64,000 nt of DNA from an uncultured Eubacteriales bacterium (lineage in GTDB: Bacteria > Actinomycetota > Coriobacteriia > Anaerosomatales > PHET01): positions 5,949 through 69,948 of the forward strand of contig CAYOHY010000005.1 in assembly GCA_964403885.1 (NCBI GenBank), written 5' to 3'. The position numbers were made by a program, and so were the translations under genes. Shown piece after piece: positions 2-48,942 of the stretch. Under the pieces are notes generated by a model. That model was not told the DNA's origin and did no database searches. It worked only from the letters and a program-made list of their open reading frames with translations. Position 1 is the first letter of the stretch, and every line of letters begins with the position of its first letter.

Positions 2-511
2 ACCCACGTCGACGCTCCGGGCAACGTCGTGTCCGACAAGGTCATCAACGTTCCCGGTTGCCCCACCAACCCGTGGTGGTTCGTCCTGACGGTCGTGGCA
101 TGGCTGGTCGACTTCGTTCAGCCGTCGCGTCCGCTGGGCATCCTCACCGCCGGTGGAGCGATCAACACGGCCGCCGTCGACTCTCAGCGTCGACTCAAGG
201 CTGTCTACGGCGTGCCGCTTCACGGTCCCCAGTGCAAGCGCTTCGACTACTGGAACCAGGGCATCTACGCCACCAAGCCGGGCGAGCCCGGCTGCCTGCA
301 GCTCATCGGCTGTAAGGGCATGCAGACCATGACTCTGTGCGCGATGCACGGCTGGAACGGTCAGGCTCCCCACAACAGCACCGCACTCGATTACGGCGTG
401 AGCGGCGTGAATGGCTCCAAGGGCGGCAACTGTGTTGCCGGCGGTCACCCGTGCATGGCTTGCACGGAGACCGGCTACCCGGATGCCTTCCTGCCGTTCG
501 TGATCCGCTAG
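2..511 (+). CDS. [NiFe]-hydrogenase small subunit, C-terminal part (5' end outside window)
   Basis: Frame is open from base 2. Motifs: NVPGCP, HxxxCxR, GCL..IGCKG..T...C..HGWN, GNCVAGGHPCMACTE.GYPD. No C-terminal TM helix. Confidence 0.93.
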   Translation, partial: THVDAPGNVVSDKVINVPGCPTNPWWFVLTVVAWLVDFVQPSRPLGILTAGGAINTAAVDSQRRLKAVYGVPLHGPQCKRFDYWNQGIYATKPGEPGCLQLIGCKGMQTMTLCAMHGWNGQAPHNSTALDYGVSGVNGSKGGNCVAGGHPCMACTETGYPDAFLPFVIR

Positions 512-2595: not shown

Positions 2596-2615
2596 CAGAG
2601 AGGGAGGTGAACAAA

Positions 2616-3866
2616 GTGAAGAGAGTATCCATCATCCTGGCCCTCACGGCCGTGATGCTGCTGGCCTTCGCCGGCTCCGCCTTCGCGAACTTCGGTCCGC
2701 ACGGCGGCTACGCCCTCGACACCGATGCGTGCGCCGGTTGCCACCGCGCACACACCTCGTTCTCTGAGGTGACGTGGGACAGCAACGGCACTCAGCGTAG
2801 CGCCCTTCTCGTGTCGTCGGCCAAGACGGCGACCGAGTTCTGCTACGCGTGCCACGGCAACGACGCCCCTGGTGCTTCCACCAACGTCGAGGCCGGTCTG
2901 TTCGATGCAGGCCCCTCCGGCGCCAACACTGTTCCGTTGGGCGGCGGTATCCTGTACGAGACCGAGTCCACCTTCAATGGTGGCCTCAACGGCGGTGCGT
3001 TCACCGGCGTGACGTCCATGCACGACATGGACAAGGGTGCGGTCACCGACCCGATGTGGGGCGCGGGCTCCTCGGCGCCGGCAGGCAAGAACCTGTCGTG
3101 CACGAGCTGCCACGACGTCCACGGTTCGTCCAACTACCGTCTCCTCAAGGACACGGTCGAGGGCGTGCCGGTCGGCGGCTACAACGCCAGCGACACCCCG
3201 ACCCCGATCGTCGTCTCGTACGAGACGAACTATCCGGTCGGCGGCTGGCTGAAGCACACCCCGGGTGCTGCTCAGATGGCGGCTTACCGTCCCAACTACA
3301 CCGAGCCCAAGTACAAGATCCTGCTCGGTGGCGGCGGCGCGGCCGGCCCCAACCGTTCGATGTCCACGTGGTGCTCCACCTGCCACGCGGCGTACAACGA
3401 CAAGACGAGCGCGTACGACTACGGTGCGTATGAGTCCAATGGCGCCATCAGCCGCGACGGCTTCGGCCAGCTCACGGTCACCGGTGCGACTCAGGCCGTT
3501 GGCTCGCGTGTCCGCCATCGTCACCCCGTCGACTCGACCGTGGTCTCCGCGAACACGGTGTCGGCCGGCTTTGGCACGAACGCCATCGTCGACTCGCTGC
3601 TTCCGCTCCAGCGCACCACCTCTACCGAGGGCAATGCCGCGGACAGCGTCCAGGACTACCTCGGCTGCCTGACCTGCCACCGTGCACACGGTTCGTCCGC
3701 GGTCATGACCGGCTGGGCCAACGCCCGCCTTGTCAATCGCGCGACGATCCCCACGTGGTCGGTCGAGCCCACGACGGCCCTCCCGGCTGGCGTGAACCCG
3801 AACGTGTCCTCGGCGATCCTGCGTGTGAACAACCGCGGCGTGTGCGAGCGTTGCCACAACAAGTAG
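2616..3866 (+). CDS. Exported hexaheme c-type cytochrome, OmcS-like architecture
   Basis: GTG start after agggagg. Signal peptide MKRVSIILALTAVMLLAFAGSAFA. Six CxxCH motifs (CAGCH, CYACH, CTSCH, CSTCH, CLTCH, CERCH) and six candidate distal His. Ends CERCHNK. Confidence 0.9.
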   Translation: MKRVSIILALTAVMLLAFAGSAFANFGPHGGYALDTDACAGCHRAHTSFSEVTWDSNGTQRSALLVSSAKTATEFCYACHGNDAPGASTNVEAGLFDAGPSGANTVPLGGGILYETESTFNGGLNGGAFTGVTSMHDMDKGAVTDPMWGAGSSAPAGKNLSCTSCHDVHGSSNYRLLKDTVEGVPVGGYNASDTPTPIVVSYETNYPVGGWLKHTPGAAQMAAYRPNYTEPKYKILLGGGGAAGPNRSMSTWCSTCHAAYNDKTSAYDYGAYESNGAISRDGFGQLTVTGATQAVGSRVRHRHPVDSTVVSANTVSAGFGTNAIVDSLLPLQRTTSTEGNAADSVQDYLGCLTCHRAHGSSAVMTGWANARLVNRATIPTWSVEPTTALPAGVNPNVSSAILRVNNRGVCERCHNK

Positions 3867-3897: not shown

Positions 3898-3936
3898 GAA
3901 GGGCCTCGGACGCAAGTCCGGGGCCCTTCTGCTTTC
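3898..3936 (+). terminator. Probable intrinsic terminator after the hydrogenase-cytochrome operon
   Basis: Hairpin gaagggcc-tcggac-gcaa-gtccg-gggcccttc followed by tgctttc. Confidence 0.75.
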
Positions 3937-4094
3937 TGTGCACATCACAGCTGCGAACGGGGACCAGATGAGAGCAGACGGATAGCAAATCGTTCAGCCC
4001 AACCCGTTGGCGGCCCGACAGACCTGCACAAACGCCCCTCGCAGCCCTATACTGTGCAGGTCAGGGGTTGTGCCCGCGCACGGGAATCCGGCCG

Positions 4095-5525
4095 ATGTCC
4101 CAGTGCCCCGAGGTAAGGAAGTGCATACGCGTGGAATCTCGCGAAGTCGCCGCTGGCGACATCCGTTCGCTGGGCCTCGTCGACGACCCCTTTCGGGTCG
4201 TGGATGACGGCTCCGGTAACGCCCCGGGCGTGAAGCTGGCCATCAATGCGGCCGCACTGCGCCTGTTCTGTGCGATCGAGGCCTCCGCGGCTGATCCGTC
4301 GCACCGCCCGATCGTCATCGAGAAGAACCGTGACATCCCGGCGTACTACCCGGTTGCCGCGTTGGCGAGGGTCTTCTCCGGCCTCTCGGACGAGACTCCG
4401 GTCGCTGGCATCCTGCAGTCATACATCCCGCTCGACATGATGCGTGTGGGCCGAGTCCGCTCGCTGCTCAACGTGGTGTCGGGCCGTGTCGCCGGCACCG
4501 ATCCCGCCGGCACCATCGGCATGTGGTCGCGTGAGGCGTTCGTCGAGCCTGACGAGTCGCTCGAGGAGTGGGCGGCGATCCGCGACACCATCACCGTCGC
4601 CGACATCCTCGACGAGATCGATCAGGACCCGCGCGCGTTTTGCGAGCGCATCTTTGGCGAGGTGGTCGAGTCCCGCTCCGGCGCCGAGAACATCGAACAG
4701 CTCATGCGCGTGTCCACGTCGCGTCAGGACCGCCTCGAGACCGACCCCGAAGAGGGTGTGGAGCTCGCCATCGCCGAGGATCCGGAGAGCGGGGATCTGC
4801 TCGACGACGCGTTCATCGTGCCGCTGGGTGAGCTCGACGCCGAGGCGCTGCCCGAGCCTGATCCGGCTACCGCTGTCGACGGGCTGATCGCCGACTACAT
4901 CATCGCCTTCACCAAAGAGCATCTCTCGCCGGTGGTCGCTCGCGGCATCGCAGCGTTTCGCGCCCAGGGCGTCAACTCGATGGCCGAGGAGCTCAAGATC
5001 ACCAAGGCCCCCAGCAAGACGGTGCACGCTCTCTACCGATTCGCCCGTCCGCGGTTCCGCTCCGGCGCCGTGATCTACGACCGCCTCGAGATGTGGGAGA
5101 ACGTGCCCACTGAGCTGCGGACCAAGATCGTGGGCACGATGACCGAGCTTCGCTGGGCACTGAAGGACGACGCATCGCTCGTGTTGATGCTCGTTCCCGG
5201 CACCTGCCCTGAGATCGAAGAGGGCTTCGCCTCGGCGATCCATGTGTCCTGGAGCTTCAAAGACGTCGAGCCCGTCTCCCAGCCTGACTCACCCTTCGAT
5301 CGTGCAATCGCCGCCGAGTGGCTCGCTTCCGCCTCGCTTTCGACCGAGGCGCCTGCGTGGGGCGATGCACTCTTCGATGCCATTCCCGAGGGTACGACGC
5401 TTGCGAGTGCAGCGACCGCCCTCTCGCGTGCGATCGAGCACGCCGTGGATGCTGGCTTGGCCGTACCTGATCCGGCCGTCGTGGTGGCCGCGCTTGATGC
5501 GGAGAAGGAGGCTGCCCCCGCCTGA
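4095..5525 (+). CDS. Hypothetical cytoplasmic protein, possibly a degenerate P-loop ATPase fold
   Basis: Long ORF with coding-like bias. N-terminal LGLVDDPF resembles the ExeA-type N-terminus, and GAVIYD resembles a Walker B motif. No Walker A. Stop overlaps the next ATG (TGATG). Confidence 0.7.
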   Translation: MSQCPEVRKCIRVESREVAAGDIRSLGLVDDPFRVVDDGSGNAPGVKLAINAAALRLFCAIEASAADPSHRPIVIEKNRDIPAYYPVAALARVFSGLSDETPVAGILQSYIPLDMMRVGRVRSLLNVVSGRVAGTDPAGTIGMWSREAFVEPDESLEEWAAIRDTITVADILDEIDQDPRAFCERIFGEVVESRSGAENIEQLMRVSTSRQDRLETDPEEGVELAIAEDPESGDLLDDAFIVPLGELDAEALPEPDPATAVDGLIADYIIAFTKEHLSPVVARGIAAFRAQGVNSMAEELKITKAPSKTVHALYRFARPRFRSGAVIYDRLEMWENVPTELRTKIVGTMTELRWALKDDASLVLMLVPGTCPEIEEGFASAIHVSWSFKDVEPVSQPDSPFDRAIAAEWLASASLSTEAPAWGDALFDAIPEGTTLASAATALSRAIEHAVDAGLAVPDPAVVVAALDAEKEAAPA

Positions 5526-8512
5526 TGCGTTCACGCCTCTCCAGCGCCTGGGTGTGTGCGGCGGCCCTTGTGGCCGTGGCCTTCTTCAGTGCTGTCTGGG
5601 TGGGGCCCGCATGGGCAGGGCCGGCGACTCCTGCTGCCGGGTTGGCGCCTCACGTTCCGATCACCTACGACACCGACGTGTGTGCCATGTGCCATCGGAC
5701 TCACTCGGCCCCCGGTGATGCGACGTGGCGCGACTCGCTGAACCAGACGCGCACGGCGCTTGCGGCGGGAAGCCCGGGTAGTGGCGATGCGGGACTGTGT
5801 TACACGTGCCACGGCGTCGAGACTCTCGGCTCGGGCACCGATATCCAGAGCTCCTTCGACGCCACCTCCGGCCACTCGCTCGAACCCAGCCCGTCGGCGT
5901 TTGGCGTATCGCCCAAGAACTGCAGCACCTGCCACGACTCACACGGCGCGGCGCGTGTCAGCACCGGCGTGCCGTACCCTGCGCTCCTGCGCGCGCGCAC
6001 CGCTTCCGGTGCGCTCGTGTACTCGGGCGATGTGGTGTGCACGGGGTGTCACGGCGTCAGGGCGGCGAGCAGCTTCCCCGGCCAAAGCGTCTGGGCCGCG
6101 TCGCCGCACTCGCGTATCGCCACTCCGGCCAGCGGGACGCGCATCGTGTGCAGCGCCTGTCACGACCCGCACGGCTCTCCCATCGCGCCGTCAATCCGCA
6201 CGGCGTTGGCGACCCCGTCGGCACCCGGCACGTACACCGTCGCCGCTAACGACCGTCGCCTGTGCTTCGGCTGCCACTCGGCGAAGCTTGGTGTCTGGAA
6301 CGGCTCCGCTTCCTATCCCGGCTCCTCGCACGCCTCGTCGACCGCGACCGTGACGATCTCGGGCGAGTGGGTCACCGGCACCGTCGTGCCGTTCCGGGCT
6401 GTGGGCGAGTGCCAGGTCTGCCACGCCTCGATGGGCAAGGGCGATGCGTCGGGAACGATCATCCCCACGCTTCTCAACGCCACGGGCCGCATCCTGTGCG
6501 ACACCTGCCATCGCACCGGCGGACCGGCCGTGTCGAACCTCGCGTCGCTCGCGTACTCGCCAACCACGCCGGGCAACGAGATCGTCGCCGCGTGGGGTGC
6601 CGTGACGTCCGATCGCTACGGTCGAGCCCAGGTGTTCGCCCGTGAGGCCACGTCGACCACCACTCCGGTGGGACCGCGTGACCTGTACCCCGTCACCAAG
6701 GTGGGGGACATGGCCGTGGGCGACATCGATGGCAACGGTGCCGCCGAGGCGATCGTCTCGGATCTGTCTGCGGCACGCGTGGCCATCCTCACGCAAAGCG
6801 ATCTGCGCTCCGTCGTGGCCACGCTGGTCACGCTCCCCGGAGCCGCGCCGGCCGAGAAGCTCACCGTTGGCGACGTGTTCGTCGACGGCTCCGGGCTGCC
6901 TGAGCTCGTGAGCGTGACCTCGACCGGAACGGTGCGGGTGTCGCGCTACGTCGCAGGATCGCTCGTCTCGGTTGACTCGGTTGTCGTGACCGGCACGCCC
7001 ATCGCGGTGGCCAGCGGCAACGTGACAGGGACCGCGGGGGCAGACATCGTCGTCACCACGGCGGCGAACACGATGTTCATCATCACGGATTCGGCCGGCA
7101 CGCTCGTGTCGCACGGTCCGTATGCGACACGAACCAACCCGGTGTCGGTCTCTGTGGGCAACGCCGATACGGACACGTCCACCGCCGAGATCGCCGTCGG
7201 CAACGCGGGCGAGGTCAACAACATCGTCTCTCTGTATCGCGGGACCGGCGTGCGCTACGACGATGGCGGAGGGCCCCTGCCGGCCGGCGCAAGCGTCAAC
7301 GCCGTGCTCATGGCCGACGTCCTTCCCGGGGTTACTCCGGGCGGCACGTCCGGCGCCGAGATCGCCGTCGCGTACGCCAACGCAAGCAACCGCACGGGCC
7401 TGCTGGTCGTTCCGCAGCCGCTGTCCACCAGCACCACCCAGCTCTACCCGGCTGCTGACCGCTCCAACGCGCGCGCGTTGGGCTTTGGTGACACCGATGG
7501 CGACGGCGACAAGGACATCGTGGTCGCGCTCTCGGGTGCGTTCACCCGGGACGCGAGTGCGACGCCGCCGTCGATCGCCATCTACACCCCGGTGTCGCCC
7601 GGCGGTGCGACGCTCAGCTTGCAGCACACCGCGTGGGGCGCCGGCGCCGAGATGGTGTCGTCACGTGCGGCGATCGCCGTGGCCGATATGGGCGCTGTGG
7701 TGCCGTCTCGCCACCCGGCAGGCGTGGTCGCGGGTGCCCACACTCCCACGGAGACGCCGCCCTACACTCGGCATGTGGAGTGCGTGGACTGTCACAACGT
7801 TCACGAGGCCAAGAACGACTCGGCCGACACCACGCTGATGGCAGGCGAGGAGCTGGGCGCGTGGGGCGTCTCGCGGGCGGCACTCTCGTCGACCACGCCG
7901 GTCCGCGCTCGCGCCACCGCCGAGTACGAGGTGTGCTACGCGTGCCATTCGTCGGCCGATCCCTCGGCGAACCGCAACGTCGCCTCTGAGGTCGTCACGT
8001 CGGGCATGTCGTATCACCCCATCGAGGGCCGCTCTCCCAACACGAGCGCTACCGGATCGACCCTGACCACCGCCGTGGTGGCGGGGGACCGCATCCGCTG
8101 TACGTCATGTCACGGCAACGCCGGGACCGGCGCTGCCGGTCCGCACCGTTCCCCCGCGTGGCCGCTGTTGTACAAGCGGTTCTCCGGGACGGTGGCGGTC
8201 GACTCGCAGATGGTGTGCTACGGCTGTCATGCTCCCGGCGTGTATCTGACCGGGGCCAACGACGGTGTGGGTGGAACGCGCAGCGGCTTCTACAACACCG
8301 CTGCAGGCGTGGGTAAGCCCGAGCAGCGCAAGCTTCACTCGTATCACGCCACCGCTGGCGTGGCATGTGCTGCATGTCACCTCAGTCACGGCGCACCCAC
8401 CCGCCGAGCGATGCTGCGCGGCGATGCGTTCACGTGGACCGAGCTGGCAGGCGGAGGACAGTGTGACGTGGCGTGCCATACGCCATCGACCACACATTCA
8501 TACACTCGATAG
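5525..8512 (+). CDS. Exported multiheme cytochrome c (13 CxxCH + 1 CxxxCH) with central FG-GAP/VCBS beta-propeller
   Basis: Signal peptide ending AWA. Eight heme motifs precede and six follow a block of about 7 repeats such as GDIDGNGAAEAIV and GDTDGDGDKDIVV. Confidence 0.9.
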   Translation: MRSRLSSAWVCAAALVAVAFFSAVWVGPAWAGPATPAAGLAPHVPITYDTDVCAMCHRTHSAPGDATWRDSLNQTRTALAAGSPGSGDAGLCYTCHGVETLGSGTDIQSSFDATSGHSLEPSPSAFGVSPKNCSTCHDSHGAARVSTGVPYPALLRARTASGALVYSGDVVCTGCHGVRAASSFPGQSVWAASPHSRIATPASGTRIVCSACHDPHGSPIAPSIRTALATPSAPGTYTVAANDRRLCFGCHSAKLGVWNGSASYPGSSHASSTATVTISGEWVTGTVVPFRAVGECQVCHASMGKGDASGTIIPTLLNATGRILCDTCHRTGGPAVSNLASLAYSPTTPGNEIVAAWGAVTSDRYGRAQVFAREATSTTTPVGPRDLYPVTKVGDMAVGDIDGNGAAEAIVSDLSAARVAILTQSDLRSVVATLVTLPGAAPAEKLTVGDVFVDGSGLPELVSVTSTGTVRVSRYVAGSLVSVDSVVVTGTPIAVASGNVTGTAGADIVVTTAANTMFIITDSAGTLVSHGPYATRTNPVSVSVGNADTDTSTAEIAVGNAGEVNNIVSLYRGTGVRYDDGGGPLPAGASVNAVLMADVLPGVTPGGTSGAEIAVAYANASNRTGLLVVPQPLSTSTTQLYPAADRSNARALGFGDTDGDGDKDIVVALSGAFTRDASATPPSIAIYTPVSPGGATLSLQHTAWGAGAEMVSSRAAIAVADMGAVVPSRHPAGVVAGAHTPTETPPYTRHVECVDCHNVHEAKNDSADTTLMAGEELGAWGVSRAALSSTTPVRARATAEYEVCYACHSSADPSANRNVASEVVTSGMSYHPIEGRSPNTSATGSTLTTAVVAGDRIRCTSCHGNAGTGAAGPHRSPAWPLLYKRFSGTVAVDSQMVCYGCHAPGVYLTGANDGVGGTRSGFYNTAAGVGKPEQRKLHSYHATAGVACAACHLSHGAPTRRAMLRGDAFTWTELAGGGQCDVACHTPSTTHSYTR

Positions 8513-8577
8513 ATACAGTGAGGCCCCGCCCGCGGAACCGGACATTCCGGGGGTCCTCATGAGGAGATGATGGTGCA

Positions 8578-9369
8578 GTGGGTAAGGAAGGCACGCGTTT
8601 CACTCGCAACCGCTTGGTGTGGGGTGCCGTAGCGGCGCTCGCCTTGGCGGGAGTGATCTTCGCCGCATCCGCACTGTCGAGCCCCTCGAAGTCTGAGCCC
8701 CCCGCGCCATCCAAGCTCTCCGCGCCCATCAGGGCCGAGCAGCTCGCGCGCTCGGCGCAGCAGGCGCTCTCCGAGAACCAGACGGCCACGGCGCTCGCCG
8801 CGGCGAACCAGGCACTCAAGCTCGATCCGCAGAACGCGACCGCACAACAGGTCGTTAACTCGGCCACGACGCCGGAGCCCAGCGAGCCCGCACCGTCGAA
8901 GCCTGCCACCTCCACCACCACCAACACCGCCGCCGACGCCAAGTACCTCAAGCCGGTCAGCGACCTGGGTTCCTTGCTGCCCGCCTCGATCAGCGGATGG
9001 ACGGCCGGGCAGATGGTCAAGGTCAAGCCTGACGCGCTCGTGACGTTCGAGCCCAAGTCATCTACGGCCGCGGCCGGCAAGATCGTGCGCGTGATCTTCA
9101 ACGTGCACGACCAGGGCAGCGCGTCCAAGGCGTCACAGTTCGTGACGCGCGTCGACAAGCGCGCGTACACCAAGAATCAGAGCACCGTGGATGTGGGTGC
9201 GGTCAAGGGAGCGTTCTTTGGCACCGACGGGCGCGGGGTCGCGGTCGTCGCATTCGCCAGAGGCCGCTACGCCTTCGAGCTGATCGTGGCGGTGAAGCCG
9301 GGCACCGCACCCGGCACCCTCAAGCAGCTCGCCACACAGGTCGCGGGCTCGTTCCCGGCAACGAAATAG
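8578..9369 (+). CDS. Membrane-anchored exported protein with TPR-like helical hairpin and P/T-rich linker
   Basis: N-terminal hydrophobic helix, segment ATALAAANQALKLDPQNATA, PEPSEPAPSKPATSTTT linker, alpha/beta C-terminal domain. Confidence 0.75.
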   Translation: MGKEGTRFTRNRLVWGAVAALALAGVIFAASALSSPSKSEPPAPSKLSAPIRAEQLARSAQQALSENQTATALAAANQALKLDPQNATAQQVVNSATTPEPSEPAPSKPATSTTTNTAADAKYLKPVSDLGSLLPASISGWTAGQMVKVKPDALVTFEPKSSTAAAGKIVRVIFNVHDQGSASKASQFVTRVDKRAYTKNQSTVDVGAVKGAFFGTDGRGVAVVAFARGRYAFELIVAVKPGTAPGTLKQLATQVAGSFPATK

Positions 9370-9380
9370 GTGACAGGGCG

Positions 9381-12300
9381 ATGATGTGCTCGCGCAAAGC
9401 TCTCCGACGACTGGTCCAGCTCTCTGTCGCGTGGCTGTTGGTGGTGCCCTCTGTGGCCCTCGCGTCTCCCTACACCCAGCCCGTCGAGATCTTCAGGGAG
9501 ACGTTCGAGACGACGTCGACCGCGTACACGGTGTCGGCCATCCAGTCGTCCTCGCCGGCCAACTGGGAACGCATCACCAAGCGGTTCAAGAACGGTACCC
9601 GCGGACTGTGGTGCGCGGGTACGCTCGCTTCGGCGGTCACGGCGATGAAGTACCCGGCCAAGACCAGCACGTGGGCGCAGTTCGACCTCCCTCAGTTTGC
9701 AGACTACTACCAGCCGAGGGTCGACTTCGCCTACACGATGCCCACGTTGGGGGCGAACGACGCAGAGTCGTTCGTGGTGGCGTGGAGGCAGTCGTCGTCC
9801 GGCACAAACAATATGTTCAACCGGACGCCGTGGCCCAAGACCGGCGCCAGTGCGTGGGTCACCGGCACGGCCGATCTGACCACCGGCACGCAGTCGCTGT
9901 CGCGCTCCTCGGGCAGAATCGCCTTCAAGTTCATCGACATCGACGACACCAACCTCAGCCCTCAGCAGGGCGAGGGTACGACCATCGACGACGTCATCTT
10001 CTCCGGCTGGAAGTACGGTTCCCCGCGCAATCTTGCGTCTTCGGTGGGTACCTCGGCGATCAGACTGGACTGGACGCGTCCGTGGCGTTCGACGGCACAG
10101 ACCTCCACGGAGGAGCGCCCGATCACCTACCGTGTGTGGCGCGCGCCCGGGGGCACCACCACGTGGACCGAGCTCACGGATCCCAATCGCCTGACCGCTG
10201 ATCCGGCGAGCATGACCCTCAGTACGCCGATCATCGGCGAGGGTGTCTCGTACCGCTACTCGGTGCAGGCATGGGACACGGGTGACGGGCAGGGCCTGGG
10301 CCAGGCCTCGTTGACCACCGCCACGGTTCCTGCCGTCCCGCCGGGTGTCACGCTGATCTCGCCTGCGCAGAACTTCATGCTCTCGACCGCGCCCATCCTC
10401 ATCAGCGGAGGCGCGTCGGACACCGGTACCGGCGTCAACAACGTGCAGGTGCGCGTCCGCCGAGCGGACGGCAAGTGCCTCACCACTTTGGGCACCTGGT
10501 CGACCTCGGATGTGTGGTTGCCCACCACGTCGAGCGACGGATACGCCACGTGGTCTCGCACCTGGACGCCGGATGCGGAGACGCTTGCACTGGGTCAGAT
10601 AGTGACCATCACCGCCAAGTCGTTCGACGGCGCCGGGATGTCGGCCACCACGGGCGGCGTCGCCTCGACGGTGCCCATGAGCGCGTCGGTGTCGCTTGCG
10701 GGCGGCGCCCCCTTCACCACGCAGCGCGTCGTGAGCGCGGCGATCTCGGCCGCCGGAGCCACCCCCACCAAGATGCGTTGGAGCGTCGATGGTGCGGCAC
10801 CAAGCGGGTGGGTCAGCTACGCGACCTCGCAATCGGTCGATCTTGGCGCCGGCGATGGCACCAAGACCGTCACGTTCGAGCTGTCCGCCGACGGCGGCAC
10901 CAGTGTCGCCGCCGTGGCTTCTGACTCCATCGTCGTTCACACGAGCGTGCCGCAGGTCGTGCTCGTGACCCCGGCCGACGGCTTCGCCCTGACGTCGGGC
11001 GCGGTCGCGATCGACGCGAGCGCCACCGACGCCGGAGGGTCGATCCAGTCGGTCCAGGTGCGCGTGCGACGCAGCAGCGGTACCTCGTGGGACGGCTCGA
11101 GCTGGGTGGCGGCCGACACGTGGCTTCCCGCTAGCTTCAACGCCGCCACCTCCACCTGGAACTGCGCGTGGACGCCTGACGCGACGGTGATCGCCGCAGG
11201 CGAGATCGTCTCGGTGGTCGCGCGTGCCGTCGATGGAGCCGGCCTGGTGGGTACCAGCCCTGCTGCATCCTCGGCCACGCCGCTCGCAGCGTCGTTGTCG
11301 CTCGACGGTGGCGCCGCGGTGAGCACCGACCTCGACGTGCTCGCCTCGATCGTCGCGACGGGCTCGCCCACGTCGATGCGGTGGCGCGTGAACGGCGGCT
11401 CCTATGGCGCCCCTCAGCCGTTCGCATCGAGTGTCTCGGTGGCCCTGCCTGCGGGCGACGGCACCAAGACCGTTGAGTTCGAGCTCACCGGACCCGGTGG
11501 TGTGGTGACCGCGTCCGACACGATCATGGTCCACACGAGCGTCCCCGCTGTGTCGGTGTCGACGCCTCCGGGCGGCTTTGCGCTCAAGTCGGGCACCACG
11601 CACATCACCGGCACCGCGACCGATGCCGGCGGCTCGATCTCGGCTGTGGACGTGCTCATCAGGCGCGCCGACGGCCTGTGCTGGAACGGCAGCGGGTGGG
11701 TTGTGACTGAGACGTGGCTGGCGGCCTCGACCGCCAACGGCTACGCGGCGTGGTCCTACGACTGGACGCCGGCAGCTGGCGATATCGCCGCCGGCAAGAT
11801 CGTCACGGTCAGCGCGCGTGCGTTCGACGCATACGGCCTCTCAAGCACGACGACCGGTGTCTCCTCGGCGGTGCCGGTCTCGGCCTCGATCGCACTTGCG
11901 GGCGGCGCGCCCTTCTCGGGTTCTGCGACGATCCCTGTGGCGATCTCGGCGGTGGGGGCCACGCACATGCGGCACAGTGCCGATGGCGGCCCCATGTCGT
12001 CGTGGGTGGCCTTCAGCAGCGCCTCGACCGTCACCGTGACTCCGGCCGATGGCGTCAAGACCGTGACCTTCGAGTTCTCCTCGGATGGCGGCACGACCGT
12101 TGCGGCTACCGCCTCCGATGACATCGTGGTCGACGGGTCCATCCCGGTGGTCGCGATCACGGCGCCGCAAGCGCAGTTCCTCACCACGGCGACGCCCGTG
12201 ATCCAGGGAACGGCCACCGATACCGTCTCCGGCGTGAGCGGCGTGAAGGTGCGGATCAGCAGCAATGGCGAGTACTTCAACGGCATCGCGTGGCAGCCTG

Positions 12301-13108: not shown

Positions 13109-14203
13109 CTACGGCACGATGTAGACCTGCGTGCCGATCTCGACGCGGTCGTAGAGGTCCTCGATGTCGTGCCGCACCATGCGCATGCAGCCGTGGCTCG
13201 CGGCCGAGCCGATCGACCCGATGTTGTTGGTGCCGTGGAAGCGGATACCCGACGCGCTCAGGTTCAGCGCGCGTGTGCCCAGGGGGTTGTCGGGTCCGGG
13301 CGGGATGAACGGCGGCATCGTCTTGGCCCACTCGCTGCCGGGGTTGACCCACGTGGGCCGATACCGCTTCGCCACGATCTCGAAGTGGCCCTTGGGTGTG
13401 GGGTGGGCCGGGGTGCCGATCGCGCACGCGTAGGTCTTCTCGATGACGGCGCCCTTGAACAGGCGGATGCGGCGCTCGGAGAGATCCACCACGATGGTCT
13501 TGCCAAAGCTCTTCGCGGTCACCTTGGCGGGAACCACTGCCACCGGTGCCTCAAGGGTCTTCTCGGAGGCAGCGAGAGCGCCGTCACCGCTGAACGCTTC
13601 CGTGATGAGCGCGACGGTCTCGGTCGCATCGGTCCTGCGGCCCGTTGATTCGGGCGTGATCTTCACTCGGTTCACGTCGACGGCGAGCGTCGCGTCGACG
13701 GCGCGGCGGTCGACCTGTGCAGCCTGTGATGCGACCCACTTCTTGACTGCGGCCTGGTCGACGGTGAAGGCCGGCTCGATCTCGGTAGTCAGGGGCGCAC
13801 CCGTCACGGCGTGGCCGACGCGATCCAGATAGGCGGCGGTGCGACGCGGCGCGTAGGCGGCGTCGATCATCCCGTTCACGTCGACGGCGACCGCACCCGC
13901 GGGGTCGAACGTCAGGTTCCTGCCGTCCATGGTCACGGTGACCGGACGCATCAACGGTGCGGACACCGCGGACTCGATCGCCGTGCGCGCCTCGGCCTCG
14001 GTCATGCCTGAGAGGTCGGTTCCAGCCACCGACACGCCCTGGGGAACGATGCCCCGCTCGGTGTAGTCGTAGACGGCGGCCCATGCCATCGAGGCCGAGA
14101 GCGCGAGCAGCATCGTCGCGAGCACGACGAGCATGATCCGTTGCCCGGTACCTGGAGCCTTCACAAAAGTGCCTCTCGCGTAATCAAACGGTGCGTCCGA
14201 CAT
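13109..14203 (-). CDS. L,D-transpeptidase (YkuD domain) with peptidoglycan-binding region
   Basis: IVVDLSERR, NPLGTRAL, IRFHGT...IGSAASHGCMRM. N-terminal TM helix. Confidence 0.92.
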   Translation of the reverse strand: MSDAPFDYARGTFVKAPGTGQRIMLVVLATMLLALSASMAWAAVYDYTERGIVPQGVSVAGTDLSGMTEAEARTAIESAVSAPLMRPVTVTMDGRNLTFDPAGAVAVDVNGMIDAAYAPRRTAAYLDRVGHAVTGAPLTTEIEPAFTVDQAAVKKWVASQAAQVDRRAVDATLAVDVNRVKITPESTGRRTDATETVALITEAFSGDGALAASEKTLEAPVAVVPAKVTAKSFGKTIVVDLSERRIRLFKGAVIEKTYACAIGTPAHPTPKGHFEIVAKRYRPTWVNPGSEWAKTMPPFIPPGPDNPLGTRALNLSASGIRFHGTNNIGSIGSAASHGCMRMVRHDIEDLYDRVEIGTQVYIVP

Positions 14204-14274
14204 ACTATTATAGGCACGGCACCTCCTTTGCCCGCTACCGCGGGCGCCGGCGGGTGTCGGGGTAAGGGGGACGG

Positions 14275-15120
14275 GTGATCGAGGCGGAACCCGCGCACGC
14301 CAGCCGCGGCAGCATCGATAGGCTCATAGCGAAGATCAACGAGACGCGCGGTATCGACCTCTCTCAGTACCGTATCGCCTACGTCGAGCGGCGCCTCGCT
14401 GCGCGCATGCGCACGCTTGATGTGCGCACCTACCGCCAGTATGCCGACCTGCTCGAGTCGGACCCCGACGAATTCGCCAAGATGCTCGACACCCTCACGA
14501 TCAACGTCACCGACTTCTTCCGCGACGGTGTCATGTGGGAGTCCCTGCGCAACAACGTGCTTCCCTCGCTGGTCGAGGCGAAGCGCGCGGGACGCAACCG
14601 CACCATCCGCCTCTGGTCCGCAGGCTGTGCCACCGGCGAGGAGGCGTACTCGCTCGCGATGATGATGCTCGACCATCTGGGTCCCGAGGCATCGCGCTAT
14701 CTCATCTCCGTGTTAGCAACCGACCTTGACCCCATCGCGCTCAAGAAGGCCGAGGCGGGCGTCTATCACGTGGATCGCCTCAAGCGCATTTCGCCAAGCT
14801 ATCAGGTACGATTCACGCGAAGCGTGAGCGACACACAGTTCGAGATCAGACCCGAGGTCAAGCGGATGGTCAGGTTCAGGCGGATGAGCCTGTTCGACCC
14901 AACGCCGGTCAGGGTCATCGATCTCATCTTGTGCCGCAACGTGTTCATCTATTTCGATCGCGAACAGCAGGCCCGGGTGCTCGACAACTTCTGGGACTCC
15001 CTCAGCCGTGGCGGGTACCTCGTGCTCGGCCGGAGTGAGAAGTTGTCGCCGGACATGTCCGCCCGGCTCGAATCGGTTGACGGCAAGGAACGCATCTATC
15101 GCAAGCCGGCCCGCCCGTAG
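14275..15120 (+). CDS. cheR: Chemotaxis protein-glutamate methyltransferase
   Basis: [44 protein letters not shown]. Confidence 0.96.
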
Positions 15121-15161
15121 GGTCGACACCCGACCCGCTGGGTCGGCGAGGGGAGTCTCGT

Positions 15162-16484
15162 ATGACGCAGGAGCACCGCCACAGTGCAATGAGGCACGGT
15201 CTGTCGTCGACGTTCACGGTCCTCACGTGGATGACCATCGGACCGCCTGTGTTGCTCGGCCTCGTCGCCACGGCCTTCTTCGCCGAGCGGTGGCTGGATC
15301 TGTCCTGGGGTCAGATGGCGCCGGTGATCGGTTTCGGTGCTGTCGCGATGCTCGTGATGGCCCCGGTCGGAACGCTCGCGTGGCGCTGGCAGTTCAAGTC
15401 ACGCATCCTCAGGCCGCTTCGCGATCTGGGCGGCGTGATGATCGAGGCCGGCAAGGGTGACCTGACGCAGCGTGCGGACATCCATCGCGACGACGAGATC
15501 GGCATGCTCGCCAACGAGTGCAACATGCTCGTCGCATCCCTGGGCACCATCGCCAACCAGGTCCGCCGTTCCGCCGAGAGTGTCTCGGCCGCCGCATCGC
15601 AGCTGTCGGCGTCTTCGCAAGAGATCAACTCGTCCACCATCGAGATCTCGAGCTCGGTGCAGCAGATCGCGCACGGTGCCGAGCTGCAGTCGCGCAAGGT
15701 CGACGAGACCAGCCGCTCGATGGAGATCATCGCAGGCACGACCCGCGAGGTCGCCGTCAAGGCCCGCGACGCCGCGTTCACGAGCGACGAGGCCTTGAGT
15801 GTCGCTCGACACGGCGAGGAGGCGACCACACAGGCCATCGTCAAGATCGCCGAGGTGCAGCAGGCCATCGAGACCCTCGCCGAGTCGGTCGAGGTCCTCG
15901 GCCAGCGCAGCGAGAAGATCGGCGGCATCGTCGACGTCATCACCTCGATCGCGGACCAGACCAACCTGCTCTCACTCAACGCCGCCATCGAGGCGGCCCG
16001 TGCCGGCGAGTCCGGCCGCGGCTTCTCGGTGGTCGCCGAGGAGGTCCGCAAGCTCGCCGAAGGCTCCGGGCGTGCCGCCGAGCAGATCGGCGACCTCATC
16101 CGCGAGGTCCAGGCCGAGACCGCCAAGGCGCTGCGCTACATGGAGATCGGCACGCGCGAGGTCGAGGTGGGCAGCGAGGTCGTAGGCCGCACAAGCGATG
16201 CGCTGCGCCTCATCACCGACGCCGTCACGCGAACGTCCACGCTCGCCAGCGAGATCAACAAGTCAATGCAGGCGCAGTCGGAGCGCACCGCCGAGGTCGA
16301 CCGAGCGATGCATGAGATCGCTGCGGTGGTCGAGGAGAACGCCGCGTCCGCCGAGGAGACCGCCGCCGCGGCCGAGGAGCAGACCGCCTGCATGGAGGAG
16401 ATCACCGCATCCGCACAGGACCTGTCGGATATGGCAGAACGCCTGGATGATGCGGTCCACCGCTTCAAGACAGAAGAGGGATAG
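15162..16484 (+). CDS. Methyl-accepting chemotaxis protein (2 TM, HAMP, signalling domain)
   Basis: GDLT....DEIG HAMP motif and [37 protein letters not shown]. Confidence 0.96.
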
Positions 16485-16488
16485 GACG

Positions 16489-16977
16489 GTGGGCGAGTCC
16501 AAGGGCGCGAGCTACGTGGTGTTCCGCCTCGGCTCCGAGGAGTACGGGCTTCCCGTGGGCGCCGTCAACAGCATCATTCGGTACGAGGATGCGACGCCCG
16601 TCCCGCGGGCACCCGCTTCCGTGCTTGGCGTGATCAACCTTCGGGGGCGCGTCGTTCCGGTGATCGACCTGCTGTACCGATTCTCGGGCAAGCGTTTCGA
16701 GCCGCGCCCCATGTCGCGCATCGTGGTGGCCGAGGGGCGGACCGGCCCTGTGGGTGTCGTCGTGGACGCTGCCCACGAGGTCGCGCAGTTCTCCGAGGAG
16801 TCGTTTTGTGAGGTGCCCGAAGGGGTGCTGAGCCCGGAGACCGCCCGCGCCTTCACCGGTGTGGTCGAGCGCGACGGGTCTTTGGTCATACTGCTCGATC
16901 TCGATGAAGCAGTCCCGCGCGTCGAACTCGGCGCTTCGAACCCCGATGCATACGAGGAAGGGGAGACGGATGTCTAA
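16489..16977 (+). CDS. cheW: Chemotaxis adaptor
   Basis: YVVFRLGSEEYG, VPRAP..VLGVINLRGRVVPVIDL. Confidence 0.93.
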   Translation: MGESKGASYVVFRLGSEEYGLPVGAVNSIIRYEDATPVPRAPASVLGVINLRGRVVPVIDLLYRFSGKRFEPRPMSRIVVAEGRTGPVGVVVDAAHEVAQFSEESFCEVPEGVLSPETARAFTGVVERDGSLVILLDLDEAVPRVELGASNPDAYEEGETDV

Positions 16978-17341
16978 GACCGTGCTCGTGGTCGACGACG
17001 CCGCTTTCATGAGGATGATGATTCGAGACATCCTGGCGAAGGAAGGCTACGTGATCCACGAGGCCGTCAACGGCCGTGACGCCGTTGAGAAGTACGCGGA
17101 GCTGAAACCCGACCTCGTCACCATGGATATCACGATGCCCGAGGTCGACGGCATCTCGGCGCTGCGGTCGATCAGAGAGGCGGATCCGGGCGCGCGCGTG
17201 CTCATGGTGAGCGCCATGGGCCAGCAGAAGATGATCGTCGAGGCCCTCGAGGCCGGCGCACTGGACTTCCTGGTAAAGCCCTTCCAGCCAACCAAGGTGC
17301 TCGAGACGGTCAAGAAGTGCCTCGACGCGTCCGCCGGATAG
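16970..17341 (+). CDS. cheY: Single-domain response regulator
   Basis: VLVVDDAAFMRMMI, PDLVTMDITMPEVDG, SAMGQ, FLVKPF (B. subtilis/Thermotoga CheY type). Confidence 0.93.
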   Translation: MSKTVLVVDDAAFMRMMIRDILAKEGYVIHEAVNGRDAVEKYAELKPDLVTMDITMPEVDGISALRSIREADPGARVLMVSAMGQQKMIVEALEAGALDFLVKPFQPTKVLETVKKCLDASAG

Positions 17342-17353
17342 GGTTCTCACGTC

Positions 17354-18451
17354 ATGCCATCCACGATCCGCGTGCTCGTTGTCGACGACTCGGCGCTCAT
17401 CAGGCAGATGCTCACGCGAGCGCTGTCGATGGATCCGCGCATCGAGATCGTCGGCACAGCCAAGACCGGCGTGGAGGCTATCGAGCGTGCCCGTGAACTC
17501 GACCCCGACGTGGTGACGCTCGACATCGAGATGCCTGAGCTGACAGGGCTTGAGGCGCTGCCGCACATCTGCCGTCACACCCGCGCGCGCGTGGTCATGC
17601 TCTCGTCGCTCGATGATCCCGATACCACCTATCGAGCGCTGTCATCGGGCGCGGTGGACTTCATCCCCAAGCCCAGCACGGGCATGGCGAGCTCGCTGGC
17701 TGAGCTCACGGACACACTGCTCAAGAAGATCAAGACCGCCAACCGCATCAGCCCCGATCGCGCCGCCGCCATACGTGGCGAGCTCGAGGCTCCGGCTGCG
17801 CAGCTGCGCGATGTGTCGGCTGGCGAGGTGACCCGTCCTCTGCCGGCTACTGCAGGGCCCATCTCATCGGTGGTCGCTATCGCGGCTTCCACCGGCGGCC
17901 CGCCTGCGCTCGAACGCGTCATGGCCGGCCTGAGCGCGAGCATGGGTGCCACCTACCTGATCCTGCAACACCTCCCCAAGGGGTTCTCGGCGTCACTTGC
18001 CAGGCGACTGAACACGGTGGGCGACTTGACCGTTGTCGAGGCCGAGGACGGCATGCCGCTTGAGCCCGGGAGAGGCTACCTGGCCCCCTACGGTCGCCAC
18101 ATGGTTGTCGATCGCTCAAGCGGCGTGGGATGCATCGCGTTCGTGGACGCGCCGCCGCTGCACGGTGTTCGCCCCGCGGCCGATGTCTTGTTCGACAGCG
18201 TGGCCTCGGCCTATCACGATCGCGCGGTGGCGGTCGTGCTGACGGGCATGGGGGCCGATGGGGCGCTCGGCGCCCGCAAGATCCGCGACGCCGGGGGAGA
18301 GGTCGTGGTCCAGGACGAGCCCACGAGCGTCGTCTGGGGCATGCCCGGCGCAGCGATTCGCGAGGGCGCGTCTTCGCGGGTGGTCCCTTTGGGGCTGGTG
18401 GCCGCGGAGATTCGCCGCGCGGTGAGGATGCGGGCCGGTGATTCCTCATGA
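17354..18451 (+). CDS. cheB: Chemotaxis methylesterase (REC + CheB domain)
   Basis: REC domain, AASTGGP, ILQHLP, RPAADVLF, VLTGMGADG. Confidence 0.96.
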   Translation: MPSTIRVLVVDDSALIRQMLTRALSMDPRIEIVGTAKTGVEAIERARELDPDVVTLDIEMPELTGLEALPHICRHTRARVVMLSSLDDPDTTYRALSSGAVDFIPKPSTGMASSLAELTDTLLKKIKTANRISPDRAAAIRGELEAPAAQLRDVSAGEVTRPLPATAGPISSVVAIAASTGGPPALERVMAGLSASMGATYLILQHLPKGFSASLARRLNTVGDLTVVEAEDGMPLEPGRGYLAPYGRHMVVDRSSGVGCIAFVDAPPLHGVRPAADVLFDSVASAYHDRAVAVVLTGMGADGALGARKIRDAGGEVVVQDEPTSVVWGMPGAAIREGASSRVVPLGLVAAEIRRAVRMRAGDSS

Positions 18452-20391: not shown

Positions 20392-20393
20392 CG

Positions 20394-34557: not shown

Positions 34558-34686
34558 TTTACCCACCCGTTCGCCCCCTCGTTCGGTTGTAGACGCGCGG
34601 GAACTCTTATAGAGTTCTCATGGAATGCCGCGCGACGGTCGCCGGCACGCGCGTCGCGTGTAAGAACTAGCGAGGAAGAGGTGCGT

Positions 34687-36813
34687 ATGGCGAAGATCTC
34701 CCTAGCCGGGTTCAAGGACCCGGTTCGCCGACCGCGATACATCATCTGGACCGGCGTCGCCGTCCTGGTGCTGGCCGCGGTCATGATCGTGGCCCTGGGG
34801 GTGACTTCCACCCGCTGGTTCTGTTCCGAGGGCTGCCATAAGGTCCAGGACGACACCATCATCGCCTACTCGCACTCCTCGCACTCAGAGATCTCGTGCA
34901 TGGCGTGCCACATGCCCGTCGGCGCGAACCCCGTGATCTTCATCCTGCACAAGGCTGAGGCGCTCGGCGAGCTCTATATGACCGTCACTGACAACTTCGA
35001 GCTCCCGCTGAACGGCGAGTCTGAAGTCTCGCTCACCATGAAGCAGACTCAGTGCACCCAGTGCCATAACCTCGAGAACAGGCCGATCACGCCCAGCAAG
35101 GGCATGAAGATCGACCACAAGGTTCACTCTGAGATCAACGCATCGTGCCCGGTGTGTCACAACCGCATCGCGCACCGCGAGGACTTCAAGCTCACTCTGA
35201 CCGACCCCAAGACCGGCGAGCCCAACAAGAAGCACAACGACTTCATGTCGATGACCGCGTGCTTCCGTTGCCACAGCCAGGACAAGGGTTCGGAGGCGCC
35301 GGGCGCCTGCTCCGCGTGCCACACGCCGGGCTTCGAGCTCAAGCCGCCGTCGCACAAGACCTCCGACTTCTTCCCCAAGGGTCACGGCGAGATGGCGAAG
35401 GAGGCCCAGGCGGAGTCCGCCAAGGCCAAGGCTGAGCACGCCAAGAAGCTCGCCGAGGAGGGCAAGGCCGAGGGCAAGGACGTCAACGAGGTCATCGCCG
35501 AGCAGCGCAAGGGCGAGACCGAGGAGGGCGCCAGCATCGGCGAGGAGCTCCCCACCGTCGAGTCGGTCTACTACTGCGCCACCTGCCATACCGATCAGTT
35601 CTGCGTGAACTGCCACGGTATGGAGATGCCGCACCCGGCCGAGTTCAAGGAGCCCAAGGACGTCAAGGACCCCAACGGCCACCCGGTGATGTCCAAGACC
35701 AAGGCTGACAAGTGCCAGATGTGCCACCAGCCCAAGAAGACCCAGTTCTGCAACGAGTGCCACCACGGCAAGGCCGTCGGCTACGAGTACAACAAGGCCG
35801 TCGCGTGGACCACTCAGCACCCCAAGGCTGTCCAGAAGTCCGGTGTGAAGTCCTGCACCGCCAAGTGCCACAGCCCCAAGTTCTGCGTGGATTGCCACAC
35901 CGGCCGCAAGGTCGTCCCGTCGTCGCACCGTGCCGCGGGTTGGGTCAAGACCGCCAAGAAGACCGTGACCGTCTACGGTCAGACTCCTGCGGCTCCCTCG
36001 GCCAAGCACGCGCTCGAGGCGCAGAAGTCGATCGAGTCTTGTGAGGTATGCCACGGTGCCGGCGGCACCCAGGCGGCCTTCTGCAAGGCCTGCCACAAGG
36101 CTGAGATGCCGCACCCGGCAGAGTTCAAGAAGAACCACATCAACGGTCGTAAGACGCCCGCGGTGTGCACGAACTGTCACAACTGGAAAGAGCTGTGCAG
36201 CAACTGCCACCACATCGGTGCGTCCTACACCCGTCCGTGGACCGCGGTGCACGGCGCGTCGGTCAACAAGAACGGTGCGACCGACTGCCTCAAGTGTCAC
36301 GGCGGCGAGTCCGGTACGGACAAGTCGTTCTGCGTGAAGTGCCACACGGCCCGCAAGGTCAAGCCTGCCTCGCACCGTGCAGCCAAGTTCGTGCGCGACT
36401 ACAGCGCCAAGGATGCCGTGCACGTCCAGCTCTACACCAAGGACGGCGAGGTGTGCACCTACTGCCACAAGGGCGACGCGGCCAAGCTGCCGACGTCCAC
36501 CTTCTGCCAGGGTTGCCACAAGCTCCCGATGCCGCACCCCGAGGGCTTCGGCGCCAAGGGCAAGGGCAACGGCGGCGAGCACCAGAAGCTGCTGAAGTCC
36601 AAGAAGACGAGCAAGGCTGTCTGCGCGAACTGCCACCAGCCCACGTTCTGCAACTCTTGCCACCACGAGGGTGCCCCGGCGAACCGCCCGTGGCTCCGCT
36701 ACCACCCCAACGTGGTCAAGAAGAACGGCGCGACCGGCTGCTTCGACTGCCACGCCGAGACGTTCTGCTCGAACTGCCACGTCAACCTGGCGAAGCGTGG
36801 TCTGCTGAACTAG
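34687..36813 (+). CDS. Membrane-anchored multiheme cytochrome c (22 CxxCH + 2 CxxxCH) with NapC/NirT-like N-terminus
   Basis: N-terminal TM helix, then TST.WFCSEGCH, SHS.ISCMACH, LHKAEALGELY, then repeated CxxCH...FCxxCH pairs. Confidence 0.93.
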   Translation: MAKISLAGFKDPVRRPRYIIWTGVAVLVLAAVMIVALGVTSTRWFCSEGCHKVQDDTIIAYSHSSHSEISCMACHMPVGANPVIFILHKAEALGELYMTVTDNFELPLNGESEVSLTMKQTQCTQCHNLENRPITPSKGMKIDHKVHSEINASCPVCHNRIAHREDFKLTLTDPKTGEPNKKHNDFMSMTACFRCHSQDKGSEAPGACSACHTPGFELKPPSHKTSDFFPKGHGEMAKEAQAESAKAKAEHAKKLAEEGKAEGKDVNEVIAEQRKGETEEGASIGEELPTVESVYYCATCHTDQFCVNCHGMEMPHPAEFKEPKDVKDPNGHPVMSKTKADKCQMCHQPKKTQFCNECHHGKAVGYEYNKAVAWTTQHPKAVQKSGVKSCTAKCHSPKFCVDCHTGRKVVPSSHRAAGWVKTAKKTVTVYGQTPAAPSAKHALEAQKSIESCEVCHGAGGTQAAFCKACHKAEMPHPAEFKKNHINGRKTPAVCTNCHNWKELCSNCHHIGASYTRPWTAVHGASVNKNGATDCLKCHGGESGTDKSFCVKCHTARKVKPASHRAAKFVRDYSAKDAVHVQLYTKDGEVCTYCHKGDAAKLPTSTFCQGCHKLPMPHPEGFGAKGKGNGGEHQKLLKSKKTSKAVCANCHQPTFCNSCHHEGAPANRPWLRYHPNVVKKNGATGCFDCHAETFCSNCHVNLAKRGLLN

Positions 36814-44717: not shown

Positions 44718-44720
44718 ACG

Positions 44721-46383: not shown

Positions 46384-48942
<2,559 letters not shown>

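Follow-up and report, generated by a model that had tools for sequence, protein, structure and literature searches.

The window analysed here is a stretch of 64,000 nucleotides (contig CAYOHY010000005.1, positions 5,949 to 69,948, assembly GCA_964403885.1) deposited under the name of an uncultured Eubacteriales bacterium. At its left end lie the genes of a [NiFe]-hydrogenase (hydS and hydL) and, immediately downstream, a gene for a hexahaem c-type cytochrome of the OmcS family (Table 1). This cytochrome, its homologues and the enzymes that are encoded next to them are the subject of the present analysis.

Reading-frame analysis supported the GTG at 2616 as the start of the cytochrome gene and placed its stop at 3866. 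The start is also backed by all full-length homologues, which begin with an aligned MKR or MKK. An alternative start at 2571 was dropped because it overlaps hydL, lacks a ribosome-binding site and precedes the MKR at which the homologues begin. The translation opens with a Sec-type export signal (MKRVSIILALTAVMLLAFAGSAFA), after which the mature protein continues as NFGPHGG, and in an alignment with 36 homologues the junction ..AxANFGPHGG is kept across the family. Neither a lipobox cysteine nor an LPXTG motif occurs in the translation. Six CxxCH motifs (at residues 39, 76, 162, 253, 351 and 410) contain all twelve cysteines of the protein, and its histidines number 14.

A preliminary description of this stretch, made from the letters alone, had read the gene as an OmcS homologue of similar length (about 416 amino acids) on the basis of a series of motifs. 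These motifs are all present in the translation (PHGG, CAGCHRAH, CYACH, MHDM, APAG..LSCTSCHDVHG, MSTWCSTCH, RHP, CLTCHRAHGS and the terminal CERCHNK), and the protein is 416 amino acids long and collinear with OmcS. We built a family profile from the 36 homologues and searched it against all PDB sequences. OmcS (6ef8/6nef) was the only significant match (E 1.8e-11; next match, E 1.6), and no significant match to a non-OmcS protein appeared. Positions 38–421 of the profile aligned to positions 8–406 of the OmcS chain with all six CxxCH motifs in register. Comparison with a 28-sequence profile of the Geobacter OmcS family by hhalign gave a probability of 99.65% (E 3.7e-25, 311 columns, 26% identity), and BLASTP aligned the cytochrome to OmcS with 27% identity over 401 columns (E 3e-12). 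The three comparisons agree on homology that is collinear over the full length, at about 27% identity and with insertions relative to OmcS after haem motifs 2 and 4. That the relationship is distant follows from a single-sequence phmmer search against all PDB chains, which found nothing. The family is moderately large: clustering at 50% identity leaves 1,344 clusters with E ≤ 1e-3, of which 156 reach E ≤ 1e-30, among 1.84 billion representatives.

Could a generic multihaem cytochrome merely space its CxxCH motifs as OmcS does? The empty phmmer search would suit this explanation, as would the high composition bias reported by HMMER (24.6 bits) and the scans of Pfam and NCBIfam, which returned generic CXXCH-type matches only (for example Paired_CXXCH_1). 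However, OmcS itself also matches generic models only, and NCBIfam therefore holds no OmcS-specific model. In addition, OmcS was the sole PDB match among hundreds of multihaem chains, and the 311 columns of the profile–profile alignment take in the non-haem segments SNYR/YRR, MS.WC and RHP. Chance resemblance thus appears effectively refuted, with next to no probability left to it, and to judge from these alignments the cytochrome is a real, full-length, distant homologue of the OmcS family. A Pfam match to Cytochrom_c3_2 was confined to a 16-residue CxxCH stretch, and no c3 chain was among the matches of the profile in the PDB.

To assess the conservation of histidines, we aligned the actinobacterial and Geobacter families together (146 sequences). 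Exactly twelve histidines are invariant in this alignment, namely those of the six CxxCH motifs together with H29, H46, H136, H169, H303 and H358; H214 and H301 vary. The earlier assignment of six distal histidines to six haems agrees with this count. The twelve also recur, at every position that the sequences cover, in 78 proteins from species-representative genomes; the one deviation is a truncated protein without the first positions, in which H80 is replaced by R. By hhalign, the six non-motif residues map, in the order given, to H27, H41, H135, H172, H282 and H360 of the OmcS precursor (H2, H16, H110, H147, H257 and H335 in mature numbering). HMMER and hhalign agree on the pairing of H46 with precursor H41, so that the histidine three residues after the first CxxCH, previously proposed to be conserved, is both invariant and aligned to mature His16 of OmcS.

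This His16 is reported to be the ligand that OmcS donates between subunits (Wang et al. 2019); the papers examined here confirmed only that haem 5 receives a ligand from the neighbour. In our alignment the motif histidine of OmcS haem 5 is found at mature position 332, which is consistent with this identity of the trans ligand. Filman et al. describe twelve axial histidine ligands in OmcS, of which eleven come from the own subunit and one (at haem 5) from the neighbouring subunit (PMC6584659), and Wang et al. 2022 report the trans arrangement likewise for OmcS and OmcE (PMC9473688). In the present cytochrome the pairing of distal histidines with haems is read from conservation, not from coordinates; it would make all six haems bis-His, with the twelve ligands kept. 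H46 follows the haem-1 ligand at a distance of three residues, which confines it to the vicinity of haem 1; if the order of haems is that of OmcS, haem 5 of its own chain is therefore out of its reach.

The preliminary description had missed the context in which this gene stands. The part of the hydrogenase small subunit that lies in the window ends in ...CMACTETGYPDAFLPFVIR and has no C-terminal membrane helix. A full-length orthologue in a related locus (L001) starts with a twin-arginine signal (MAITRRQFVTRLG..., TRRQFV) and is likewise anchorless at its C-terminus. Among solved structures the large subunit comes closest (E about 1e-55) to periplasmic [NiFeSe]- and [NiFe]-hydrogenases from Desulfovibrio and Desulfomicrobium, which reduce cytochrome c3. 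The acceptor of Desulfovibrio-type periplasmic hydrogenases is the tetrahaem cytochrome c3. Family scans and the contigs of relatives revealed no cytochrome b gene in the hydrogenase–cytochrome cluster. These features predict a soluble, anchorless hydrogenase that is exported by the Tat (twin-arginine translocation) pathway and has no cytochrome b subunit. The stop codon of hydL (TAA, 2593–2595) is separated from the cytochrome start by 20 nucleotides; a terminator-like hairpin follows the cytochrome gene, and a promoter-like site precedes the gene downstream of this hairpin. The hairpin is a single consensus match in a region where the total number of such matches does not exceed that in shuffled sequences. 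The predicted transcription unit is thus hydS-hydL-cytochrome, with the cytochrome as third cistron. Two peculiarities of the large subunit may be mentioned: with 686 amino acids it is about 100–150 residues longer than the most similar Desulfovibrio enzymes, and it terminates at the His of DPCIACAVH (2569–2595), leaving no C-terminal extension for a maturation endopeptidase.

A scan with one genome per species returned 421 relatives, and the best 79 loci, nearly all of them titled Actinomycetota, were compared. HydS and HydL are encoded immediately upstream of the OmcS-like gene in 37 of these 79. In another 31 the same position is occupied by a molybdopterin oxidoreductase with Tat signal and its Fer4 (4Fe-4S) subunit. 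An exported dehydrogenase therefore precedes 68 of the 77 assessable copies, two loci being too short to judge. In hydrogenase-type loci, genes for a TPR protein and, next, an NHL-repeat membrane protein usually come before HydS and HydL; behind the cytochrome stand, in this order, a '485-aa' protein of unknown function, sometimes a 13-haem cytochrome, and a 263-aa protein. The TPR and NHL genes also precede the enzyme in the second type of locus, and two separate look-ups of contigs from relatives gave the same gene order. We searched for a cultured isolate with the hydrogenase-type operon, and only metagenome-assembled genomes (MAGs) turned up.

The second enzyme resembles a selenocysteine formate dehydrogenase (FDH). 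At the locus of Coriobacteriaceae bacterium EMTCatB1 (L046) its reading frame is broken by an in-frame stop between HQARI and HSSTVAGLG, the canonical selenocysteine site of formate dehydrogenases. Here (5635–11113) and in 30 other loci the sister module consists of TPR and NHL genes, the selenocysteine FDH-like alpha subunit, a 4Fe-4S beta subunit and an OmcS-family hexahaem cytochrome. On a working biocathode, the EMTCatB1 genes for FDH, 'with' the multihaem cytochrome next to them, ranked within the top 10% of transcripts (Kobayashi et al. 2021, PMC7943316). The FDH-linked cytochromes, all 31 together with three others, form one clade. Identity is about 46% between the two actinobacterial types and about 27% between these and the Geobacter family; the present cytochrome belongs to the hydrogenase-type clade and is 36–43% identical to members of the FDH-type clade. 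Both modules adjoin each other at L001 (1–11257), where Fer4 and a 422-aa OmcS-like protein are followed by a 627-aa unknown protein, TPR, NHL, HydS, HydL and a second OmcS-like protein.

The occurrence of the gene outside Desulfobacterota, suggested earlier, is borne out by the lysyl-tRNA synthetase (LysS) of the window, which shares 83–96% identity with the LysS of MAGs that bear the labels Coriobacteriia, Actinomycetes or Actinobacteria (HGW-Actinobacteria-7 among them). The G+C content of the window is 62–70%, and it contains peptidoglycan enzymes and a Gram-positive-type gene block (rex-greA-lysS-clpC-radA-disA, 43046–51430). By these markers the host is an uncultured, Coriobacteriia-like monoderm actinobacterium. 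OPB41/Anaerosomatales-like and related Coriobacteriia frequently occur in bioelectrochemical systems and in those of the H2-rich subsurface. The actinobacterial cluster is present in about 15 MAGs titled 'uncultured Eubacteriales bacterium', several of which also have a LysS that is 80–87% identical to that of the window (L006, L007, L009–L011, L013, L015, L016, L018, L029, L032, L043, L051, L053 and L061; L090, L093 and L094). Because these MAGs share the LysS and the same cytochrome cluster, the Eubacteriales label appears to be wrong.

Downstream of the operon, the true start of the '485-aa' gene probably lies about 30 codons downstream of the listed TTG. Wherever a hydrogenase-type locus reaches far enough downstream, a homologue of this protein is encoded between +1.2 and +2.2 kb, in most cases between +1.4 and +1.7 kb; the FDH-type locus has none. 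The 13-haem cytochrome also follows in many related loci. Open reading frames with at least two CxxCH motifs number three in the window (6, 13 and 22 haems). The third (34681–36813, + strand) encodes a 710-aa protein that is anchored by an N-terminal membrane helix, has a NapC/NirT-like first domain and contains 22 CxxCH motifs; it is a candidate link from the quinone pool to extracytoplasmic cytochromes. A gene for a Rex-type redox-sensing repressor is found at 43046–43762 in the same window as these three multihaem cytochromes. Farther along, the minus strand carries a gene for a YkuD L,D-transpeptidase, and after it comes a chemotaxis operon (CheR, MCP, CheB, CheA and CheC; 13109–21005 for both); the wider neighbourhood is syntenic, since the YkuD-CheR flank also follows the cluster in L001. 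An ATPase of the type II/IV secretion family (T2SSE; 25530–26633, + strand) adjoins genes for peptidoglycan-binding and NlpC/P60 proteins and may belong to a pilus or Tad-like system. For Geobacter, a role of pilins in the export of OmcS was at one time proposed.

Table 1. Features at the hydrogenase–cytochrome locus, in window coordinates
Feature	Coordinates	Strand	Remarks
[NiFe]-hydrogenase small subunit, C-terminal part	2..511	+	Pfam NiFe_hyd_SSU_C 1.3e-15; 5' part beyond left window end
[NiFe]-hydrogenase large subunit (hydL), 686 aa	535..2595	+	Pfam NiFeSe_Hases 2.7e-75; Cys, not Sec, in DPCIAC
Shine-Dalgarno GGAGG	2603..2607	+	8 nt before GTG; read from sequence
OmcS-family hexahaem c-type cytochrome	2616..3866	+	416 aa precursor, 392 aa mature
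Sec-type signal peptide, residues 1-24	2616..2687	+	Cleavage between AFA and N; read from translation
H29, invariant non-motif His	2700..2702	+	Aligns with OmcS precursor H27 (mature H2)
CxxCH 1, CAGCH, residues 39-43	2730..2744	+	Aligned to OmcS
H46, three residues past CxxCH 1	2751..2753	+	Aligns with OmcS precursor H41 (mature His16); candidate inter-subunit ligand
CxxCH 2, CYACH, residues 76-80	2841..2855	+	Aligned to OmcS
H136 (MHDM), invariant His	3021..3023	+	Aligns with OmcS precursor H135 (GHN)
CxxCH 3 and distal-type His, CTSCHDVH, residues 162-169	3099..3122	+	Aligns with OmcS CSSCHDPH
CxxCH 4, CSTCH, residues 253-257	3372..3386	+	MSTW before motif, compare OmcS MSEW
H303 (RHRHP), invariant His	3522..3524	+	Aligns with OmcS precursor H282 (LRHP) by hhalign; adjacent H301 varies
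CxxCH 5 and His, CLTCHRAH, residues 351-358	3666..3689	+	Aligns with OmcS CLSCHRAH
CxxCH 6, CERCH, residues 410-414	3843..3857	+	Two residues from C-terminus, as in OmcS
Terminator-like hairpin, 14-bp stem, 10 G-C pairs, T-rich tail	3898..3929	+	32 nt past cytochrome stop
Conserved acidic protein ('485-aa'), no signal peptide	4068..5525	+	No Pfam, NCBIfam or PDB match
Secreted 13-haem cytochrome, 995 aa, FG-GAP/VCBS-like middle region	5525..8512	+	Eight N-terminal and five C-terminal CxxCH
263-aa protein, N-terminal membrane anchor or signal, weak TPR similarity	8578..9369	+	Conserved in cluster

The position of the gene as third cistron of an operon for an exported [NiFe]-hydrogenase changes its most likely function. 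We consider it probable that the cytochrome is the dedicated redox partner of this hydrogenase, a protein of OmcS ancestry in the role of cytochrome c3. In this scheme HydSL would oxidise H2 outside the membrane, and the electrons would pass through the FeS chain of the small subunit to the six bis-His haems of the cytochrome. The cytochrome would then have the role that tetrahaem c3 plays beside the hydrogenases and formate dehydrogenases in the periplasm of Desulfovibrio. From there electrons could reach other extracytoplasmic multihaem cytochromes, the membrane quinone pool or extracellular acceptors, and at a cathode the flow could reverse. A polymer of the cytochrome could carry them through the thick cell wall. 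We infer both the direction and destination of this flow and the polymer state; candidates for the next carrier are the 13-haem FG-GAP cytochrome (5525..8512) and the 22-haem NapC/NirT-like cytochrome (34681..36813).

Several observations weigh against the assignment as dedicated partner of the hydrogenase. The link between the two proteins is indirect, resting on adjacency and predicted co-transcription. Direct transfer of electrons from external H2 to external Fe(III) would conserve no energy, and the route must therefore include a step at the membrane. Nine of the 77 assessable copies are not enzyme-linked, so that the family can work without a fixed enzyme partner; in three Thermoleophilia loci TPR and NHL genes stand directly upstream of the cytochrome. 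One 54%-identical member (L018, 10001–11350) stands alone; the genes on its flanks encode surface proteins of the Ig-like and SpaA-like kinds and a flavoprotein of the amine-oxidase type. Finally, comparison of the actinobacterial cluster proteins with the Geobacter locus by BLASTP revealed no homologue of GSU2502 or of the assembly genes GSU2500 and GSU2499, the part of the assembly block (GSU2500–GSU2493) that the comparison covered. The sole signal in this comparison was a weak similarity of NHL propellers (E 1e-6) to the gene upstream of omcS.

The polymer state was approached by structure prediction. An AlphaFold2 model based on the 36 close homologues was discarded (pLDDT 49), and the 146-sequence alignment of both families gave a pLDDT of 78. 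Of the poorly defined stretches in this monomer model, the mature N-terminal arm (residues 24–52) is by far the longest; a second, at 63–66, spans four residues. The arm carries H29, haem motif 1 and H46 and is the most conserved part of the cytochrome family, yet the least defined in the model. This prediction fits an arm that has its partner outside the monomer. Comparison of the fold with the OmcS filament subunit gave a weak match. Head-to-tail oligomerisation or polymerisation in the manner of OmcS appears plausible because all twelve OmcS-type ligand histidines, H46 included, are kept, because H46 would be unable to serve haem 5 of its own chain, and because of the behaviour of this arm.

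A partner of the hydrogenase need not be a filament. In the space between membrane and wall the cytochrome could be soluble, either monomeric or a closed dimer, and could deliver the electrons of the hydrogenase to cytochromes of the membrane or the surface as c3 does, with H46 acting as ligand in cis or across the dimer. Such an arrangement would follow an operon logic identical to that of the hydrogenase–c3 and FdhAB–c3 systems of Desulfovibrio, and the synteny described above favours an enzyme partner. Ligation in cis is arithmetically possible because the six invariant non-motif histidines equal the haems in number. The weak match to the filament subunit points in the same direction, as does the fact that the paralogues of OmcS are not known to polymerise. 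However, the same twelve histidines in OmcS require one ligand from the next subunit, H46 is tethered to haem 1, and a monomer or closed form sits poorly with an N-terminal arm that is so conserved and so uncertainly folded on its own. We regard a non-filamentous partner as unlikely. The same histidines can be read in the opposite sense, as those of a free-standing OmcS-type nanowire; micrometre-long filaments would then deliver respiratory electrons to minerals or partner cells, and the hydrogenase would merely be co-regulated. Apart from the twelve conserved ligands, the equivalent of OmcS His16 among them, this explanation draws on the collinearity and similar length of the two proteins, on the other large secreted multihaem cytochromes of the cluster and on those family members that stand alone among surface proteins. 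In addition, Parvivirga, a cultured relative of this lineage, forms pili-like appendages only on ferrihydrite, although no link to the present gene was drawn in that report (PMC9686372).

Co-regulation alone is nevertheless hard to accept, since 68 of the 77 copies directly follow an exported dehydrogenase, here within one predicted transcription unit. Among OmcS and its paralogues, wire formation is known for OmcS alone, and the functions of OmcT, OmcJ and GSU2501 are unknown (PMC12977616). OmcS is charged by the periplasmic trihaem cytochromes PpcA–E (PMC10954620), and no small trihaem cytochrome of the Ppc type is encoded in the 64-kb window. The cluster also lacks homologues of the Geobacter assembly genes named above, and the host has no outer membrane to cross. 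A free-standing nanowire that is independent of the enzyme seems to us quite improbable. Combining the two ideas, OmcS-family wires in Coriobacteriia-like actinobacteria might span the wall or extend from the cell and be charged directly by, or decorated with, the exported hydrogenase or formate dehydrogenase. They would form a self-contained module between H2 or formate and extracellular electrons that works both ways and needs neither periplasmic shuttles nor porin–cytochrome conduits. We put this forward tentatively, as a possibility on which we would not yet rely.

The preferred reading, a dedicated partner of the exported hydrogenase, places the protein between two known systems. With OmcS of Geobacter sulfurreducens (GSU2504; 6EF8/6NEF) and its paralogues OmcT, OmcJ and GSU2501 it shares the character of a secreted hexahaem protein of about 400 amino acids. 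The order of the CxxCH motifs, the six extra invariant histidines and the last motif at the extreme C-terminus are common to OmcS and the cytochrome, and a gene for an NHL-type beta-propeller lies nearby in both kinds of locus. In contrast, OmcS belongs to a diderm member of Desulfobacterota and is encoded in omcS-omcT-GSU2501, whereas the actinobacterial gene comes from a monoderm host and is third in a hydrogenase operon, or part of an FDH-like operon in the sister clade. OmcS forms filaments, and the present cytochrome may do so. The features shared with the c3 systems of Desulfovibrio would be a soluble, anchorless, Tat-exported hydrogenase without cytochrome b and, as we infer for the present case, a multihaem c-type acceptor; the FDH-type loci repeat the logic of FdhAB-c3 for a selenocysteine formate dehydrogenase. 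However, c3 has a 13-kDa tetrahaem fold, and a 392-aa hexahaem protein of the OmcS family is not a member of it. Unlike c3, the cytochrome is encoded inside the hydrogenase operon, and its host lacks an outer membrane that would enclose a periplasm.

The homology, the histidines and the host claimed in the preliminary description have held up, but the novelty was overstated. Arbour et al. 2020 had already reported an OmcS homologue (28% identity, six CxxCH) in the Coriobacteriales genome S27 (PMC7399161), and a 48%-identical relative bears the name 'c-type cytochrome OmcS' in one source. The OmcS homologues named by Portela et al. are confined to Geobacter, Geoalkalibacter and Anaeromyxobacter (PMC10954620). 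The S27 protein and 1c0406 of EMTCatB1 (Kobayashi et al.) come from the same lineage and belong to the same protein family as the present cytochrome; the EMTCatB1 locus represents the FDH-type sister module, whereas ours is of the hydrogenase type. As far as the available text of the two papers extends, a linkage to an enzyme is absent from Arbour et al., the name OmcS does not occur in Kobayashi et al., and the two facts are not connected in either. A search of the available literature found no description of a systematic linkage between OmcS-like cytochromes and hydrogenases or formate dehydrogenases, although Shen et al. 2025, whose subject is a 'widespread and ancient' machinery of OmcS assembly, may cover part of it. 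The conserved enzyme–cytochrome module, with its hydrogenase form kept in 37 of the best 79 loci, is a more interesting finding than the homology to OmcS.

This module meets three open questions, namely how nanowires are charged, how electrons cross a thick monoderm wall, and how hydrogenases and formate dehydrogenases are wired at cathodes, corroding iron and minerals. An OmcS-family protein in the operon of an exported hydrogenase (37 species-level genomes) or of a selenocysteine FDH-like enzyme (31 more) provides a testable pairing of enzyme and conduit. If the cytochrome polymerises, it would represent the first OmcS-type wires outside diderm bacteria, and their charger would be an enzyme instead of a small cytochrome. 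If it does not, the OmcS fold would be an ordinary redox-partner module, which warns against calling every OmcS homologue a nanowire.

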